In this document: one piece after another, positions 1 to 7,797 of the stretch | Position numbering within the stretch: position 1 is the first letter of the stretch | How the letters are laid out: each line of letters starts with the position of its first letter | DNA from: Chthoniobacteraceae bacterium | Lineage (GTDB): Bacteria; Verrucomicrobiota; Verrucomicrobiia; Chthoniobacterales; Chthoniobacteraceae | Reading direction: 5' to 3' | Assembly: GCA_031409655.1 (NCBI GenBank) | Contig: JANNXQ010000045.1 | Span: 1-16,942, forward strand | DNA length: 16,942 nucleotides | Translations under genes and position numbers: made by a program | Notes under the pieces: model-generated | The model's database searches: none | What the model was told of the DNA's origin: nothing | The model's input: only the letters and a program-made list of their open reading frames with translations

Positions 1-27
1 CTGAGGGTATGTGGGTGGGATGAATGA

Positions 28-295
28 GATCGACAGAGAGCGGAGTCGTGTGGCAGATGCCGATTGAGAGAACTGGAAAACCCACTCTTTCAGAAGGCGA
101 GCCGCCGAAAGCCCGTGCGCTGCAGTGGGGTTACTCCCCGTTTTCGCTGACTGGGCTTCGGATGAACTCTCGTGGAGCGGAGGACCAAGGACCCGGGGCC
201 TAACGAACGATAGGACCGCCCCGGGCCGCGGCCGCCGACTCCGGATGCCTGCTTGAGAACGGTTCACCGCCGCGCGGCTTCGCTTTCTGTCGATC
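28..295 (+). ncRNA. Putative IS110 bridge RNA (seekRNA-type guide RNA)
   Basis: 28-54 pairs with 269-295 as a contiguous 27-bp stem, and all 5 DNA-level mismatches are G-U pairs on the + strand. Internal hairpins lie at 65-92, 105-161 (large internal loop) and 192-225. Located in the non-coding end upstream of an IS110 recombinase. Confidence 0.75.
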
Positions 296-319
296 AACAT
301 AAACAACAGTCAAAACCCT

Positions 320-1537
320 ATGAACCATCCACCAGCAAAGCAATCCGCAAATGCCCCGCTCGCAGCGCCGCCGGCGCTCGGGCCGCAGGGGCGCGCCGTC
401 GGCCTCGATGTCCACCCGGACACCTTCGCCGCCGCCATCCTCGAAGGCCGCGAGCCACTGGGCGCGCGCGTGCGGCTCAATGTCACCCAGCAGCCGCTGG
501 CGGCCCTCGGCGCCTGGGCCGCCCGGCACACCACCGCGGAGGATGTCCTCATCCTCGAAGCCAGCGCCAACAGCTTCGCCATCGCCGAACGCCTGACCGC
601 GCTCGGTCGCCAGGTCTATATCCTGGAGAGCCACCGCGCGGGGCAGATCGGCAAAAGCTATCTGGCCAATGACAAGGTCGATGCCGTGAAGATCGCGCGC
701 ATCTACCTGAGCGGCCTGGGCATCAAAGTCTGGCAGCCCGACCCGGAGACCCGGCAGCGCCGTGAGTTACTCTCCACCTACCAGCGTTGCGTGAAAGACA
801 GCACCCGCGCCCAGCAGCACCTGCGCAGCTTCCTCAATGAACATACCCTGCGCCTGCCCAAAGGCTTTCGCCTCTGCCGGCCCGAAGCGGGCGCGAGACT
901 GGTGACCCTCAAGGACTGGACGCCGCGCCAGAAGCTGCTCCTGCAGGAAATGCACGGCAGCCTGCTCGCCGCCCGCGAGCGGCGCACCCGGCTGCGCCGG
1001 ATGATGGCCCTGGAGATCGAGGAGACCCCCGACTTCCTGCGCCTCTATAAGCTGGCCGGACTGAACCTGGTCACCACCTATGCGCTGGTCGCCATCATCG
1101 GCAACATCGCCCGCTTCGCCCACAGCAAGAACCTCGTCAGTTACCTCGGCCTCAACCCCAGCGTCGTCGAGAGCGGCAACTTCGAGGGCGGCGGCGCCTT
1201 GCACGGGCACGGCCGCGGCAGGCTGCGCGCCCTGCTCATCCAGGCCAGCAAACGGCTGCTGACCTGCGTGAACCCCCTGCAAAAGTGGGGCCTCAGCGTC
1301 GCCCTGCACCGCGGGACCAACAAAGCCGCCGTGGCCGTCGCCCGCAAGCTGACCGTGGCCGTCTGGCACGTCCTGCAAGGCCACTGGAACAAAGCCCTGG
1401 AGGAAAACAGCACACTCCTGACCAAGCTCAGCAAACTGGCCACCGACCTCGGTCTGCCGACCCTCAAGGAGCTGGGTTACGCGAGCAAGATCGCCTTCCA
1501 GGAGCAGAAGTTAGAGGTGCTGCGCACGCATCTTTGA
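320..1537 (+). CDS. IS110-family transposase/recombinase (RuvC-like DEDD domain plus C-terminal Tnp domain), 405 aa
   Basis: GLDVH, LILEAS and NDKVDAVKIA give the DEDD tetrad. SYLGLNPSVVESG carries the conserved serine motif. KAAVAVARKL is the typical C-terminal motif. Confidence 0.95.
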   Translation: MNHPPAKQSANAPLAAPPALGPQGRAVGLDVHPDTFAAAILEGREPLGARVRLNVTQQPLAALGAWAARHTTAEDVLILEASANSFAIAERLTALGRQVYILESHRAGQIGKSYLANDKVDAVKIARIYLSGLGIKVWQPDPETRQRRELLSTYQRCVKDSTRAQQHLRSFLNEHTLRLPKGFRLCRPEAGARLVTLKDWTPRQKLLLQEMHGSLLAARERRTRLRRMMALEIEETPDFLRLYKLAGLNLVTTYALVAIIGNIARFAHSKNLVSYLGLNPSVVESGNFEGGGALHGHGRGRLRALLIQASKRLLTCVNPLQKWGLSVALHRGTNKAAVAVARKLTVAVWHVLQGHWNKALEENSTLLTKLSKLATDLGLPTLKELGYASKIAFQEQKLEVLRTHL

Positions 1538-1652: not shown

Positions 1653-1658
1653 TTGACT
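1653..1658 (+). promoter_or_regulatory. Outward-facing -35 box (TTGACT) at the IS110 right end, candidate half of a circle-junction promoter
   Basis: TTGACT lies 11 bp before the CT core. Joining it to the left end puts GTATGT/TATGTG (7-13) 17-18 bp downstream, a weak -10. Junction promoters are established for IS110 circles. Confidence 0.5.
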
Positions 1659-1669
1659 TAACCACATGC

Positions 1670-1688
1670 CTGCAGCGCGTGGTTAGGC
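1670..1688 (-). other. Integron attC left half (R'' plus L''), interrupted by the IS110
   Basis: Four bp after the stop codon of the minus-strand gene the sequence reads GCCTAAC (RYYYAAC, R''), 5-bp spacer CACGC, then GCTGCAG (L''-like), then IS sequence. Confidence 0.75.
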
Positions 1689-1692
1689 GACT

Positions 1693-2241
1693 TCATTTGT
1701 AACTTGGATCTCCATAGCGAAGTTCGTTGAAAGAGTAGGATGCGTCGTAATGACCTGTAAGTGGCTCGAAGCGTCCGTCGGCTCGGCGTTTGAGGAAGGC
1801 GAGCCACTTCGGTTGATACTTAACGTGCTCGACCTCTCCGGTGGGCTTGCCGTCTTTCAGTTCGCGCTTCTCGTAGGTGATGAATCCGATTGGGAATCGT
1901 ATGAAGCTGGCTCCGTTGTTGATTCCGTTCACGCGCTTGGAGTATGTGAAGTGTAGGATCGACAGTTCCTTGGGCGTGTCCCCAGTCGTCTTGAATACGG
2001 AGTGAACCTTGAAGCTGGTATTCGTGGCGTCGAAGTCGGCCTGCGGGTGGCCATAAGTGTTGCCGGGGAACTCATCTTTTGCCGGTTGGTTCTCGATTGC
2101 TTCGAGGACCACGACGATGTCGGCTTCGGCAAGGAGCTTGTCGTATGGCCAAAGCGGCACCAAACGACCGAAGGCGGAAGTGCCCGCGACGATGGCAACG
2201 AGCAGAATCGCGAGAGAGCGGCTAGAAAAAGGCTGGTTCAT
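1693..2241 (-). CDS. Hypothetical secreted protein, 182 aa, probable integron gene cassette
   Basis: ATG at 2241 gives MNQPFSSRSLAILLVAIVAGTSAFG, a signal-peptide-like N-terminus. GC is lower than in the flanks, the leader is very short and an attC R'' follows directly. The ORF-track extension to 2382 is intron RNA. Confidence 0.8.
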   Translation of the reverse strand: MNQPFSSRSLAILLVAIVAGTSAFGRLVPLWPYDKLLAEADIVVVLEAIENQPAKDEFPGNTYGHPQADFDATNTSFKVHSVFKTTGDTPKELSILHFTYSKRVNGINNGASFIRFPIGFITYEKRELKDGKPTGEVEHVKYQPKWLAFLKRRADGRFEPLTGHYDASYSFNELRYGDPSYK

Positions 2242-2263: not shown

Positions 2264-2704
2264 GTAGAGTAGGCGAGAAGCGATTGCGGGGGCAAGCTCT
2301 TCGCTGGCGCTGCCGTTTTCGCTGCCGACCCCTCATCAAACCGTGCAGGCGGTTTTCCCGCACACGGCTTTCCGAGTTCCATTCATGCGCTTGGCCTTTG
2401 GCTTTCATGCAGCGGTCCACGCCGCACTGCGCGGCGGGGTCCAGAGTCCGTAGTGGGTTTCGAGTTGCTCGTTCGGGTAGTGTTTGTGGAGGCCGCCGCG
2501 GCAACCGTGTTTGCGCCACAACCAGCGGCGCAGGCGGTTGCAGGTCCAGTAACGCTGCCGGCTCATCACCGCGGCACTGTTGCCGTAATGGAAGTAACCG
2601 CTCCAGCCCCGGACCACGGCATTGACCTCGCGCACCACCTCCGCAATGGCTCGCCATTGGGTGTGGTGGTTGAGGATGTGGCTCACTTTCCCGCGCAGCG
2701 ATCG
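2264..2704 (-). mobile_element. Group II intron, 3' fragment (end of the intron-encoded ORF, domain V, domain VI, 3' splice site)
   Basis: Domain V AAGCCGTGTGCGGGAAAACCGCCTGCACGGTTT (about 2370-2338, AGC triad) followed by GATGAGGGG; typical 3' end CCTACTCTAC ending at 2264. Confidence 0.9.
2405..2704 (-). pseudogene. C-terminal maturase (X/thumb) fragment of a group II intron reverse transcriptase; RT core missing, no endonuclease domain
   Basis: EVNAVVRGWSGYFHYGNS...RLRRWLWRKH is the maturase X-domain signature, and the stop lies just upstream of domain V. Confidence 0.88.
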
Positions 2705-2713
2705 TCCCCGAGT

Positions 2714-2792
2714 GGGGTCAACTCTTGAAACTTGAATACACCCTTCATCCCCTGCACAACTTCCAGCGTGTCATGTTTCAAGCGTTGACCCC
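2714..2792. repeat. REP-like inverted repeat with 22-bp arms
   Basis: GGGGTCAACTCTTGAAACTTGA (2714-2735) versus the reverse complement of 2771-2792, GGGGTCAACGCTTGAAACATGA: 20/22 identical. Confidence 0.85.
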
Positions 2793-3392
2793 GTTCCCCC
2801 CGAGGATCTGACGTTTGCCATCGGGGCCGATGCCCACGGCGATGAGCACAGCGCAGTCGAGCACGCGGCCGCCGTGGCGGATTTTTTCGTAGCGGGCATC
2901 GAGGAGGACGTAGGGGAAGGCACCGAGCGGGCGGGTGCGCCAGAGGAGCAGATCGGCGTCGAGGCGGGCGGCGCACTGGCTGACCTGAGTGGAACTTACG
3001 GAGGTGCCGCAAAGCTCTTCGAGGATGGTGGTGACTTTGCGAGTGGAGACGCCCTGGACATACATTTCGGCAAGCGCGAGGATCAGCGCCTGCTCGCTGC
3101 GGATGCCCTTCTCGAGGGCCGAAGGATAGAACTCGACCTCGCCGCGCACCTGCGGGATGGCGAAGGTGATGGGGCCAAGGCGGGTCTTGAGGGTCTTGGC
3201 TTTGAAGCCGTTGGCGTGGCCCAGGCGGGCGTCGGTGCGCTCGAAAGGCCGGGCTCTGAGCACGTGGGAACGCTCGGCCTGCATGGCCTCGTTGACGAGC
3301 AAGCGAAGCCCCTCGGCAAAGCCGTCGGAGCCTTCGTCATTGAGGAGTTGCAGCACGGATTGGAGGAGTTGAGGATGATGGAGGTGGGTCAT
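2778..3392 (-). pseudogene. IS256-family (Mutator-like) transposase, 3'-truncated at about 2799
   Basis: ERT..R.G.ANG...TLKTRLG.I...IPQVR, LAEMYVQGVSTRKV, YVLLDARYEK and LIAVGI..DGKRQILG are IS256 motifs. Similarity ends at about half the normal length. Confidence 0.92.
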
Positions 3393-3460
3393 GTGTGGTG
3401 TTGGTGTTGGTGTTTTCGAGACACCCCGACCTGAACCCATGTGACCCACCCTCTGCCAGA

Positions 3461-4018: not shown

Positions 4019-4848
<830 letters not shown>

Positions 4849-4925
4849 AAGGCAGCGCTCGGTGCCGTCAGAGGATCGGCGTTTCCGGCAGGGGGCACCA
4901 GGGTCAGCTCCAGAAAATCGCTGTT

Positions 4926-5102
4926 TCACTTGGCGGGCTGGTCGGAGCGGGCGCGCAACTCGGCTTGCCGCTGGCGTGCCACCTCCCCCAAGCGCTCGTA
5001 ATGCGTAACCAACTGCTCAGGCGTGAGGTCTTTGGTCTGCTCGTAGATGCGGGCTTGGGCGCGGCGCTTCGTTTTCACGCATTCGTATTCTTCAAGTTTC
5101 AT
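4926..5102 (-). CDS. Small hypothetical protein, 58 aa, putative antitoxin partner of the PIN protein (not in the ORF track)
   Basis: MKLEEYECVKTKRRAQARIYEQTKDLTPEQLVTHYERLGEVARQRQAELRARSDQPAK*; start overlaps the PIN gene end by 11 bp. Confidence 0.75.
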   Translation of the reverse strand: MKLEEYECVKTKRRAQARIYEQTKDLTPEQLVTHYERLGEVARQRQAELRARSDQPAK

Positions 5103-5550
5103 AGGCGATGACCTCGGCGGGGGTGTTGATGCTGATGGTGTCGAAACCGTTGATCAGGTTGACGCCATTATACAGCGGGATTTTGTCGAAGTGAACGATG
5201 TGTCTGAAATTCCAACTGACGATGCAGCGGCAGTGCTGCGCGCTGGCGAGGGCGACGTGCAGGGCGTCGGTGGCCCATTTCGGCGTGACCACGCCGGCTT
5301 GCAGGTAGGCATCGCGCAGGCGCACGGCTTCGACAGAGACGCTGATGAATTCCGCCCACGGCAAATGTTCCTCATAGACCAGGCGGACGCGCTCCGGCGC
5401 GTCCTGCAGTTCATCGACGACCACGGGGGAGACGACCAACTGGAAGCGTCCGGCTTTGACCTGGAAGAAAAACTCCTGGCTCGTCGCGTCGATCCCCGGA
5501 TCGAAGACGCCGCCGTACACGGAGGTGTCGGCATAAACGCGGATGGGCAT
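5092..5550 (-). CDS. PIN-domain protein (VapC-like toxin), 152 aa
   Basis: RVYADTSVYGG, S.VV.DEL, DALHVALA and IVSWNFRHIV motifs; start at ATG 5550. Confidence 0.9.
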   Translation of the reverse strand: MPIRVYADTSVYGGVFDPGIDATSQEFFFQVKAGRFQLVVSPVVVDELQDAPERVRLVYEEHLPWAEFISVSVEAVRLRDAYLQAGVVTPKWATDALHVALASAQHCRCIVSWNFRHIVHFDKIPLYNGVNLINGFDTISINTPAEVIAYET

Positions 5551-5557
5551 GGGAGCG

Positions 5558-5586
5558 ATGATACTGGTACGCGCTGCGCGAAGCAA
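5558..5586 (-). promoter_or_regulatory. Sigma70-type promoter for the PIN operon, probably giving a leaderless mRNA
   Basis: TTGCTT, 17 bp, TATCAT, then 7 nt to the ATG. Confidence 0.55.
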
Positions 5587-5632: not shown

Positions 5633-7660
5633 TCACCACTGGAAGCCCAGCGCATCGAGGCGGGCCTGGCGGTCGGGCAGGAGCGTGCCTTTGCGGCGGG
5701 CTCGGCGTTGGCCGGAGACCCATTCGGCGAGGACCCTTAGACCGGGGGCGTCGCAGTTAGGGCGGCAGTGGCCGTGGGTGGCTTGGAACTCCACTAACTC
5801 GGCGTAGCGCTCTTCCCACACGGCGGCGTTTCTCGCGGAGAGGCGGCGGTCGCCCGTCCAGGAGAAGCCGATGTCGTCGAGGCGGGCAATGCGTTCGGCG
5901 CTCACCTTGCCGCGCGCTCTGAGGCCGCGCTGATTGTGCGCCCAGTCGGATAGTGCCGGGTCTTCGGGAAGCGGGCGCGGGATGACGCAGTGCCCGAAGC
6001 GTTCGCGGAACTGCGCGCATTGCTCGAGGCGTTGCTGCCAGCGGGCTTCGAGCTCGGGGCTGGGTTCGGTGCGCACGTTCTTCCATACGGTCATGTCCCA
6101 AGGGAAACCGACGGCCTCGAGGCGGGCTTCCCGTTCGGGCCGGAGCTTGCCGGTGCGGTGCAGCACCCGCTGGGTCTCGGCCCACCGATAGAGGAAGAGC
6201 TCCCGCCGTGCGGAGAGACGGAAGGTTCCGTGCTGCTCCTGCCATTGCATCAGCTGGGTGAAGTTCGCATCCCAATCCGCATCCCACTCGGCATTGAGGG
6301 CCTCCTCGCCGTCCCAGGAAAAGGCGATCTCCTCCAGGCGGGCCACGCGCTCGGCGGAGAGGCGGGCGCTGGCGTAGAGGATGCGCTGACTCGCGACCCA
6401 CGGCCCCAGGCCCGGCTCCTCCTGCCAAGTGCCGGGCACGCGGCAATGGCCGAACCGTTCGCGGAAGGCGAGCAGCCGCTCGAAATGCTGATCCCAGCGC
6501 TGGCGCTCGCTGCGGTAGGGATCGGCCGGGCCGAGCCCGAGGGCGGCGAGGCGCTCGCACCGGTGCGGCCGCAGGTGTCCGGCGCGCCACGTGTCGCGCT
6601 GCGCTTTCACCCAGCGGCGCAGCGGCACGCACTGAGCGGGATGGTCCGGCACATCGCAGTGCCCATGCGCCGCGTGGAATTCGGCCAATTGCGAAAACTT
6701 TTTCATCCAGCGCGCTTCGTGGATCGCCGCCGCCGGGCGCGGATCGCTCCAGACAAAGCCAAGGGCCTCGAGACGCGCCTGCCGCTCGCGAGTGAGCCGG
6801 CTCTCCTTCTTCATCTTGCGCTGGCGGCACACCCAGGCCGCGAAGCGCCGATCCTCCGTCCAGTGGGCGGGCACGCGCACGTGGCCGAAGCGCTCGCGGA
6901 AGTGCAGCAGTTTCTGAAAGCGGCGCTCCCAGCGGTCCGCTTCGTGCCCATCCCAGTCGGGATTGTGGCACCGCGCCCCGCGCGCATTCCACACGAACCC
7001 CGCCTCGTCCAGCCGCCGCGCGAGCTCGGGGTCGAGCGAATGGTGCCGGCGCGCCTTGCGCTGCGTCCGCACCCACCTGCCCAGCTTCAGATTTTCCCGC
7101 CAGGCATTCGGCACCAGGCTATGGCCATAGGCCCGCTGAAAGGCCAGGAGCTGCGCATAACGTTCGTCCCACGTGAGCTCCCTCGTCGCCGGCTCGGGAT
7201 CGCGCGCGGCGGCGAGGTGGCGGGGCTCCCAGCAAAAGTTGATCTTTTCGAGCTGGCTGGCGCGCCTTTTCGCGAGGCGGCCCGCGCGGCGCAGGGCCCG
7301 CTGGAAGCGCACCCAGCCGGCCAGCGCCTGATCCTCCGGCCAGCGCACCGGCACCAGGCAATCGCCGTGGATGCGTTCGTAGGCGGCGAGGCGTTCGAAC
7401 ATTTCATCCCAATCCTCCTGCTGCCGATCGCAGTCGAAGCCGATCTCCGCGAGTTGCGCCCGGCGTTGCTTTTCCAGCAGGCCCGCTGCGGAGAGCCGCC
7501 GCTGCCGCACCACCCAGCGGCTCAGCGGTACGCCGCGCCCACCACCCGCGGGCACCTGGCAATGGCCGTGCGCCCGACGGAACTCCTGCAATTGGCGGAA
7601 CTGCCTCTCCCAGATCATCAGGTAGGAGAGCCCGGGGCCGGTGCGGATCGTCTCGGTCAT
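5633..7660 (-). CDS. Protein composed of 9 tandem helicase-associated (HA, PF03457-like) domains with no helicase domain, about 675 aa
   Basis: Nine copies of W...F..L..F....GHC.VP......L..WV..QR......L...R...L...GF.W. The start is uncertain (7660 preferred; the frame is open to 7795). Confidence 0.9.
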   Translation of the reverse strand: MTETIRTGPGLSYLMIWERQFRQLQEFRRAHGHCQVPAGGGRGVPLSRWVVRQRRLSAAGLLEKQRRAQLAEIGFDCDRQQEDWDEMFERLAAYERIHGDCLVPVRWPEDQALAGWVRFQRALRRAGRLAKRRASQLEKINFCWEPRHLAAARDPEPATRELTWDERYAQLLAFQRAYGHSLVPNAWRENLKLGRWVRTQRKARRHHSLDPELARRLDEAGFVWNARGARCHNPDWDGHEADRWERRFQKLLHFRERFGHVRVPAHWTEDRRFAAWVCRQRKMKKESRLTRERQARLEALGFVWSDPRPAAAIHEARWMKKFSQLAEFHAAHGHCDVPDHPAQCVPLRRWVKAQRDTWRAGHLRPHRCERLAALGLGPADPYRSERQRWDQHFERLLAFRERFGHCRVPGTWQEEPGLGPWVASQRILYASARLSAERVARLEEIAFSWDGEEALNAEWDADWDANFTQLMQWQEQHGTFRLSARRELFLYRWAETQRVLHRTGKLRPEREARLEAVGFPWDMTVWKNVRTEPSPELEARWQQRLEQCAQFRERFGHCVIPRPLPEDPALSDWAHNQRGLRARGKVSAERIARLDDIGFSWTGDRRLSARNAAVWEERYAELVEFQATHGHCRPNCDAPGLRVLAEWVSGQRRARRKGTLLPDRQARLDALGFQW

Positions 7661-7797
7661 ATGGTCTCGAAGGGGAATAGGTGGTTGCGTGGTGAAAGTC
7701 TGGTTGGTGACTTTCGCAAACGAGCAATTGCAGGATCCGTGCCAAAGGATGCTCTCCCTCCCTCGTTTTGCGTGCCAGCTTGGGAGAATTCGCATCT

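Follow-up and report, generated by a model that had tools for sequence, protein, structure and literature searches.

The hairpin at positions 105–161 (plus strand) very probably forms the target-binding loop of a bridge/seek RNA with two loops, which lies upstream of a DEDD recombinase gene on the same strand and guides insertion of the element into the L'' region of integron attC sites. The loop, judged by comparison with homologous elements, is real and well-supported. The window, i.e., the whole stretch of 16,942 nt analyzed here, opens contig C45 in genome G000, and its first letters coincide exactly with the CT core of the element.

Element ends, recombinase and RNA region

The element spans positions 1–1671 and consists, in this order, of CT, GAGGGT, an ATGTGG repeat, the RNA region, the transposase gene (tnp), TTGACT, CCACAT, GC and CT, with non-coding flanks of tnp of 319 bp at the left end and 134 bp at the right end. 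The left CT core (1–2, plus strand) was located by the flank ...GTTCG|CT in contig C133 and by right end-CT-left end junctions in three homolog contigs (L048, L050 and L086). It is followed by the left-end terminal extension GAGGGT (3–8, plus strand), representing the long donor arm and present as GAGGG(T/A) in every one of the 63 left ends that were listed together with a donor guide, and by the left subterminal inverted repeat ATGTGG (9–14, plus strand), which pairs with 1662–1667. The right end (1662–1671, plus strand), delimited by sequence and homolog comparison, is made of the subterminal repeat CCACAT, the 2-bp extension GC and the CT core. The perfect part of the subterminal repeat measured 6 bp in the window copy, 8 bp in 36 of the 58 elements and 10 bp in three, falling within 6–10 bp in 53/58; the repeats are thus shorter than the 11–13 bp usual for IS1111, and across the junction they are separated by a 10-bp spacer (2+CT+6). 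The hexamer TTGACT (1653–1658, plus strand) is −35-like and may be part of a junction promoter in the circle, its paired −10 being weak; a promoter consensus scan of the junction contig L050 found none.

The tnp gene (320–1537, plus strand) encodes an intact DEDD recombinase/transposase of 405 aa, recognized by Pfam (PF01548 and PF02371) and by NF033542 (184 bits against a cut-off of 140), in which D30, E80, D118, D121 and S285 are invariant among 31 homologs. It carries the hallmark of the IS110 superfamily, a DEDD RuvC domain plus a Tnp domain with the SG motif (GLNPSVVESG), and is accompanied by what appears to be another attribute of this superfamily, a non-coding RNA whose loops match the target and the donor.

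The predicted RNA region extends over 27–300 (plus strand), its ends being placed by the long enclosing stem (about 27–54 with 262–297). The plus strand of 1–330 folded with a z-score of −6.31, none of 100 shuffles being equally stable, and an alignment of 12 homologs produced the same two-stem loop with compensatory changes in 10 of the 34 predicted pairs. An RNA from the minus strand was rejected because of its weaker fold (z −2.56) and because some G-U pairs are conserved in 12/12 homologs, which only the plus strand accommodates. Hence the original proposal that the guides read on the strand opposite to the recombinase gene fell, the RNA being made from the tnp strand; the inversion relative to IS621 concerns the reading orientation of target and donor. 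Both the fold and the homolog alignment reproduced the predicted hairpin, with the outer stem at 105–116/150–161 and the inner stem at 126–130/136–140; the consensus fold contains, in addition, a second internal loop with 166–172 as part of its 5' strand. An Rfam search with the RNA gave no match. The near-perfect stem 27–54/262–297, enclosing the entire RNA, stops about 20 nt before the tnp start and could influence processing or translation.

Target guides and insertion into attC

Homologs were gathered by protein similarity only, from 13 genome loci, 80 of 290 metagenome loci and 5 phylum-sample loci, resulting in 99 rows including the window and 87 after removal of duplicates; the five distant loci, and also the truncated loci, remained unparsed and are outside every count. 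The 5' target guide (117–125, plus strand), GCGCTGCAG, is the reverse complement of 1670–1678, exactly as had been read from the minus-strand flank (1678–1670), and the chance of such a 9-mer match within a 57-nt stretch is about 4e-4. Among 68 elements the 5' guide matched the element's own core and right flank perfectly in 44, with one mismatch in 17, two in six and seven in a single case (L043, 7/9 positions), i.e., 61/68 were within at most one mismatch; in 10,000 shuffles of the guide/flank pairs, perfect matches averaged 20.9 out of 68 and never exceeded 32. Guide and target covary at two positions: position 4 was C/C in 29, A/A in 28 and discordant in 11 elements (57/68 concordant), and position 6 was G/G in 61, C/C in five, T/T in one and discordant in one (67/68 concordant).

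The 3' target guide (143–148, plus strand) belongs to the TTCGCTG string at 143–149, found where it had been reported. The blind prediction that the sequence left of position 1 would end in TTCG was borne out by contig C133, which overlaps window positions 1–134 at 100% and carries the junction ...CCCGTTCG|CT at its end. In the homologs (58 rows, one of them, L057, with a mis-parsed 3' guide) position 3 matched in 41/58 and position 4 in 56/58, positions 1–2 in only 12–13/58; the match is perfect in the window copy, and the larger subclade matches only the last two of the four flank bases (AAGG versus TTGG). The remaining attC half, also expected on this side, did not appear: from about 7 nt outward the flank in C133 consists of a palindromic repeat, present as well at window positions 2724–2800, with local duplications, and therefore is not the missing half. 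C133 may be a rearranged or mis-joined copy.

On the right side, the proximal arm of an attC site is preserved (1670–1688, minus strand), comprising R'' GCCTAAC (1688–1682), a 5-bp spacer and L'' broken at the AG core, and the same site is used in the homologs. A cassette-like open reading frame (1693–2241, minus strand; ATG at 2241) stops 4 bp before R''; a Pfam search gave no match for it. In the right flanks of homologs, GTT occupied the R''-complement position in 63/74 and GTTRRRY matched in 52/74. An L'-R' arm was detected on the cassette strand in 31/45 left flanks, compared to 0 on the opposite strand and 0.14 in shuffles, by a post hoc pattern that had been loosened after inspection of the misses, with the controls still near zero; two stricter patterns for the distal arm gave 21/50 and 16/45. 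The distal-arm pattern was absent from 14/45 left flanks. Rebuilt attC sites of homolog insertions were 59–127 bp long. These data, together with the natural covariation, support the predicted target GCGCTGC-AG-CGAA within attC L''.

The host genomes differed in their content of empty targets. In G455, the empty target occurred 98 times (control 1); most of these sites form arrays with a regular spacing of a few hundred bases, and one such array ends beside a full intI. G454 had nine (control 0), and one element within the array lies next to intI; eight of the nine empty sites are the C variant, as spelled by the guide of the G454 elements. G453 contained only two empty targets (control 6) and five element ends, with no integrase over the cut-off; on one contig of this genome (L034, L037), three copies occupy successive attC sites about 2.3 kb apart with short cassettes between them. 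An integron integrase, intI, is present in G000 on contig C132 (389 bits), and no empty perfect target was found in that genome. One further attC site turned up when G000 was searched (L133:490–610, C132). It has the target with one additional base at its core (TTCG-C-CT-GCAGCGC), and its R'' is degenerate; this could reflect escape from the guide, a scar left by excision or a mistake in the assembly.

It is possible, even if we would not expect it, that the RNA guide is necessary and not sufficient, with the attC hairpin or the protein acting as a second check, as reported for ISPpu10; a target stem-loop determinant is reported in the available part of bioRxiv 10.64898/2026.03.19.712850. The flank retains TT at positions 1–2 despite the poor fit of the 3' guide there, and the 9-mer GCGCTGCAG is present 175 times in G000, yet the homologs sit almost exclusively in attC. 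On the other hand, the guides of the window copy specify 13 bp, which is sufficient for near-unique targeting, and insertions exist where the distal arm was undetected. Such a check would supplement RNA-guided insertion rather than replace it.

Far less probable is that targeting is encoded by the protein and that the RNA loop merely resembles the flank by shared ancestry or chance. The homologs are indeed related, and the tree-aware tests stayed above p<0.05: position 4 provided eight independent pairs (on average 5.2 same and 0.0 opposite; median p 0.06, underpowered), and position 6 and the 3' guide provided three pairs each (p 0.5 and 1, underpowered and not significant). Nevertheless, the guide state at position 4 changed nine times on the tree, the target being essentially never opposite, guide and site change together in distant relatives, and the target, donor and handshake positions are all consistent with IS621 geometry. 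The guide of this lineage appears to have been retuned several times alongside attC L'' variants, and the homologs offer a naturally occurring set of guides that differ by single bases and follow the variants of the target.

Donor guides, handshake bases and proposed mechanism

The 3' donor guide (245–252, plus strand) consists of ATGC and CT, followed by the handshake bases GC. ATGCCTG at 245–251 is identical to 1666–1672, and its predicted role as a donor guide was strengthened by the homologs, in which ATGCCT or ATGTCT equals the element's own right end in 72/72; the guide switches between the two forms along with the right end, and this split coincides with two subclades. The partner 5' donor guide is probably ACTCTCG (166–172, plus strand) on the 5' side of the second loop, complementing left-end bases 2–8 with two wobbles. 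Its variants are CCCTC in 50/63 and CTCTC (wobble) in 13/63, without covariation and with a mismatched core. The wobble candidate of the original prediction, CTTTCAG at 87–93, was abandoned in favor of 166–172, since it is base-paired in a separate hairpin and is not kept in homologs. According to the handshake rule, as given in the accessible text of PMC11208158, the GA at 149–150 (plus strand), found in 69 of 75 parsed elements, is predicted to pair with donor positions 6–7 after strand exchange; the two bases following each 3' guide (GA and GC) complement positions 6–7 of the non-cognate DNA in 69/75 and 59/65, respectively. The donor-loop handshake was unchanged in five elements whose target position 6 is C.

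The right end-CT-left end junctions of the three homolog contigs represent either a circle or a tandem dimer; no abutted-end junction of the window copy was seen in four sequencing runs of one study, among which the source run may be included. Read depth over the element exceeded that of the neighboring cassette 3–7 times in three of the four runs (the cassette was uncovered in the fourth), and in two of four the contig with the element breaks off at 1678, where the match to the guide ends, which suggests several copies with different flanks, the summed depth not being equal to copy number.

Where the element ends, its CT core, its insertion site and the covarying matches of its guides can be read directly in the sequence comparisons; the subsequent course is drawn by analogy with IS621 and ISKpn4. 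The element would be excised as a circle with abutted right end-CT-left end, the junction of which would drive expression of the RNA and tnp. The recombinase would then bind the RNA, open the attC L'' region with the guides 117–125 and 143–148 and the circle junction with the guides 166–172 and 245–250, and exchange strands at CT, aided by the handshake bases. In this way the element would land 11–12 bp past R'', inside L'' and antisense to the cassette. Because this insertion falls within the L'' integrase-binding box, established integron biology implies that attC would be disabled until precise excision. We consider it conceivable, although rather doubtful, that this clade, with its ISMch4-like relatives, constitutes a third bridge-recombinase architecture, combining a left-end RNA, IS1111-type ends and inverted reading as a surviving intermediate of the move of the RNA between the ends, and that its attC branch retunes the guide to host L'' variants, acting as a lock, RNA-programmed and reversible, on the shuffling of integron cassettes in soil and sediment Verrucomicrobiota. 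Since the copy is intact and all its guides are readable, it is directly testable.

Lineage, relation to known systems and neighboring features

In a tree of 35 proteins, calculated without IS621, ISEc21, ISPa25 and IS110 sequences, the 13 attC-targeting proteins formed a single clade (100/100) inside a wider clade with L128–L131, whose nearest neighbors were ISMch4-like proteins, sister with moderate support (92/85). The transposase falls outside the core IS1111 clade and groups with ISMch4, ISEc45 and a haloarchaeal element, the deep support being weak with long branches and few references; its 405 aa compare with 330–350 aa expected of the IS1111 group. The distant relatives L129 (44%) and L131 (33%) have the same layout, with guides, read by eye, matching non-attC repeats, which points to an origin of attC targeting within the element's clade; L129, L131 and L132 are inserted into REP-like palindromic repeats. 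A search of viral contigs for relatives of the element found none.

The IS1111-attC group is reportedly that of Tetu & Holmes from 2008 and Post & Hall from 2009. Its members (ISKpn4, ISPst6, ISPa21 and ISPa25) resemble our element in inserting at a constant position close to the R'' end, antisense to the cassette, in having the top-strand match before the bottom-strand match (the order seen in L141), and in repeats which begin with ATG and are separated by 10 bp at the junction. They differ in the cut point: the CT core of the element lies at +11/+12 from R'' inside L'', compared to TG at +5/+6 in ISKpn4 (L141, L142), and ISPpu24, like ISKpn4, inserts 5–6 bp past R'', so that our element goes 6 bp further into L''. 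In ISKpn4, one repeat lies 65 bp before the ORF and the other 258 bp after it, the repeats measure about 13–15 bp and the protein has 347 aa, as opposed to an upstream RNA (319 versus 134 bp), 6–10-bp repeats and 405 aa here. That the element is a stray IS1111-attC member whose RNA moved upstream is hardly tenable: despite the shared guide order, 10-bp repeat spacer and orientation in attC, and the small number of IS1111 elements mentioned in the available text of PMC11187229 whose non-coding region is upstream, a single clade with ISKpn4/ISPpu24 was rejected (p-AU 1.5e-46; 19 rows, quick tree), those two being far from the element's clade and nesting with IS4321, ISKpn2 and IS5708 (100/99), the alignment is limited to a C-terminal third at about 33%, and the guides read different bases at a core 6 bp away. 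On the phylogeny, this lineage has apparently reached attC targeting independently of the IS1111-attC group, i.e., convergently.

The remaining properties of the element are mixed. It resembles IS621, as far as described in the accessible parts of PMC11208160 and PMC11208158, in the left-end RNA upstream of the recombinase with the target loop preceding the donor loop, the 9-nt and 4+2-nt guides, the CT core, the handshake bases and the DEDD motif with a catalytic serine; it deviates in the inverted target/donor reading relative to tnp, the longer subterminal repeats, the attC target and a profile E-value of only 2e-5. The long non-coding region upstream of tnp is shared with the strict IS110 group (IS621/ISEc21 type), in which, however, the bottom-strand match comes first and repeats are nil or 2–3 bp, compared to the top-strand complement first (117–125, then 143–148) and 6 bp in our element. 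Conversely, the available text of PMC11187229 assigns to the IS1111 type both the top-strand-first guide order and a long donor arm in the left end, as found here, together with a long non-coding region downstream of tnp (exceptions being few), which is absent here; IS1111 repeats, furthermore, carry 7+3 (or 6+3) bp extensions; the 10-bp spacer of our element (2+CT+6) corresponds to these, and its perfect repeats of 6–10 bp are shorter than usual. The original contrast with IS1111-attC elements held for the upstream RNA; nevertheless, the element is not a plain IS110-group member, since its ends resemble the IS1111 type. The nearest named relatives, ISMch4-like elements (31% identity), labeled IS1111 in the source data of PMC11187229 in the part available, have about 250 bp of non-coding sequence upstream, a similar CCGG-TGC-CTGC motif and a C-terminal extension (408 aa), and at two loci examined by eye were inserted in other IS transposase genes.

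seekRNA-guided attC targeting has been published for ISKpn4/ISPst6 (PMC11187229, text available in part), so the mechanism is already known, and what is new, as far as searched, is the lineage, the cut point and the mixed layout. In the literature covered (further including the accessible parts of PMC11089894, PMC12444791, PMC13604230 and bioRxiv 10.64898/2026.08.14.744561), no element that targets attC was mentioned as having its RNA upstream or as coming from Verrucomicrobiota; one could be present in ISfinder, in subscription papers or in figures (tree supplements, Extended Data Fig. 10), which lay outside this scope. Bridge recombinases would thus have arrived at integron attC at least twice, at different bases. 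Moreover, this element separates the position of the RNA from the order of the guides and the structure of the ends, which as a rule are regarded as belonging together. This is relevant to the question whether IS110 and IS1111 act by different mechanisms and to bridge RNA prediction: the IS621 orientation applied to such elements places the guides on the wrong flanks. Group IIC-attC introns, as described in the available text of PMC3001079, also home to the antisense strand of attC, but are retroelements with unrelated chemistry.

Just upstream of the cassette-like ORF, and on its strand, is a truncated group II intron 3' end (2264–2686, minus strand; Rfam RF00029, 47.8 bits), accompanied by a GIIM maturase fragment, in contrast to the antisense position of IIC-attC introns. 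A palindromic repeat of roughly 80 bp, GGGGTCAAC...TTGACCCC, occurs at window positions 2709–2800 and at L002:1320–1495; it lies between this intron and a truncated transposase of the IS256 type, and a second time next to the left flank of the element in C133. The repeat may indicate where deletions ended, or else a tangled assembly. The transposase fragment (2781–3425, minus strand) is the N-terminal part of a Mutator/IS256-family protein (PF00872). Further downstream, a 720-aa ORF (5633–7795, minus strand) is built of repeated W..R/F..L...G units, which we take to resemble helicase-associated (HA) repeats, and is adjoined by small toxin-antitoxin-like PIN/DUF433 genes at 4019–5586.
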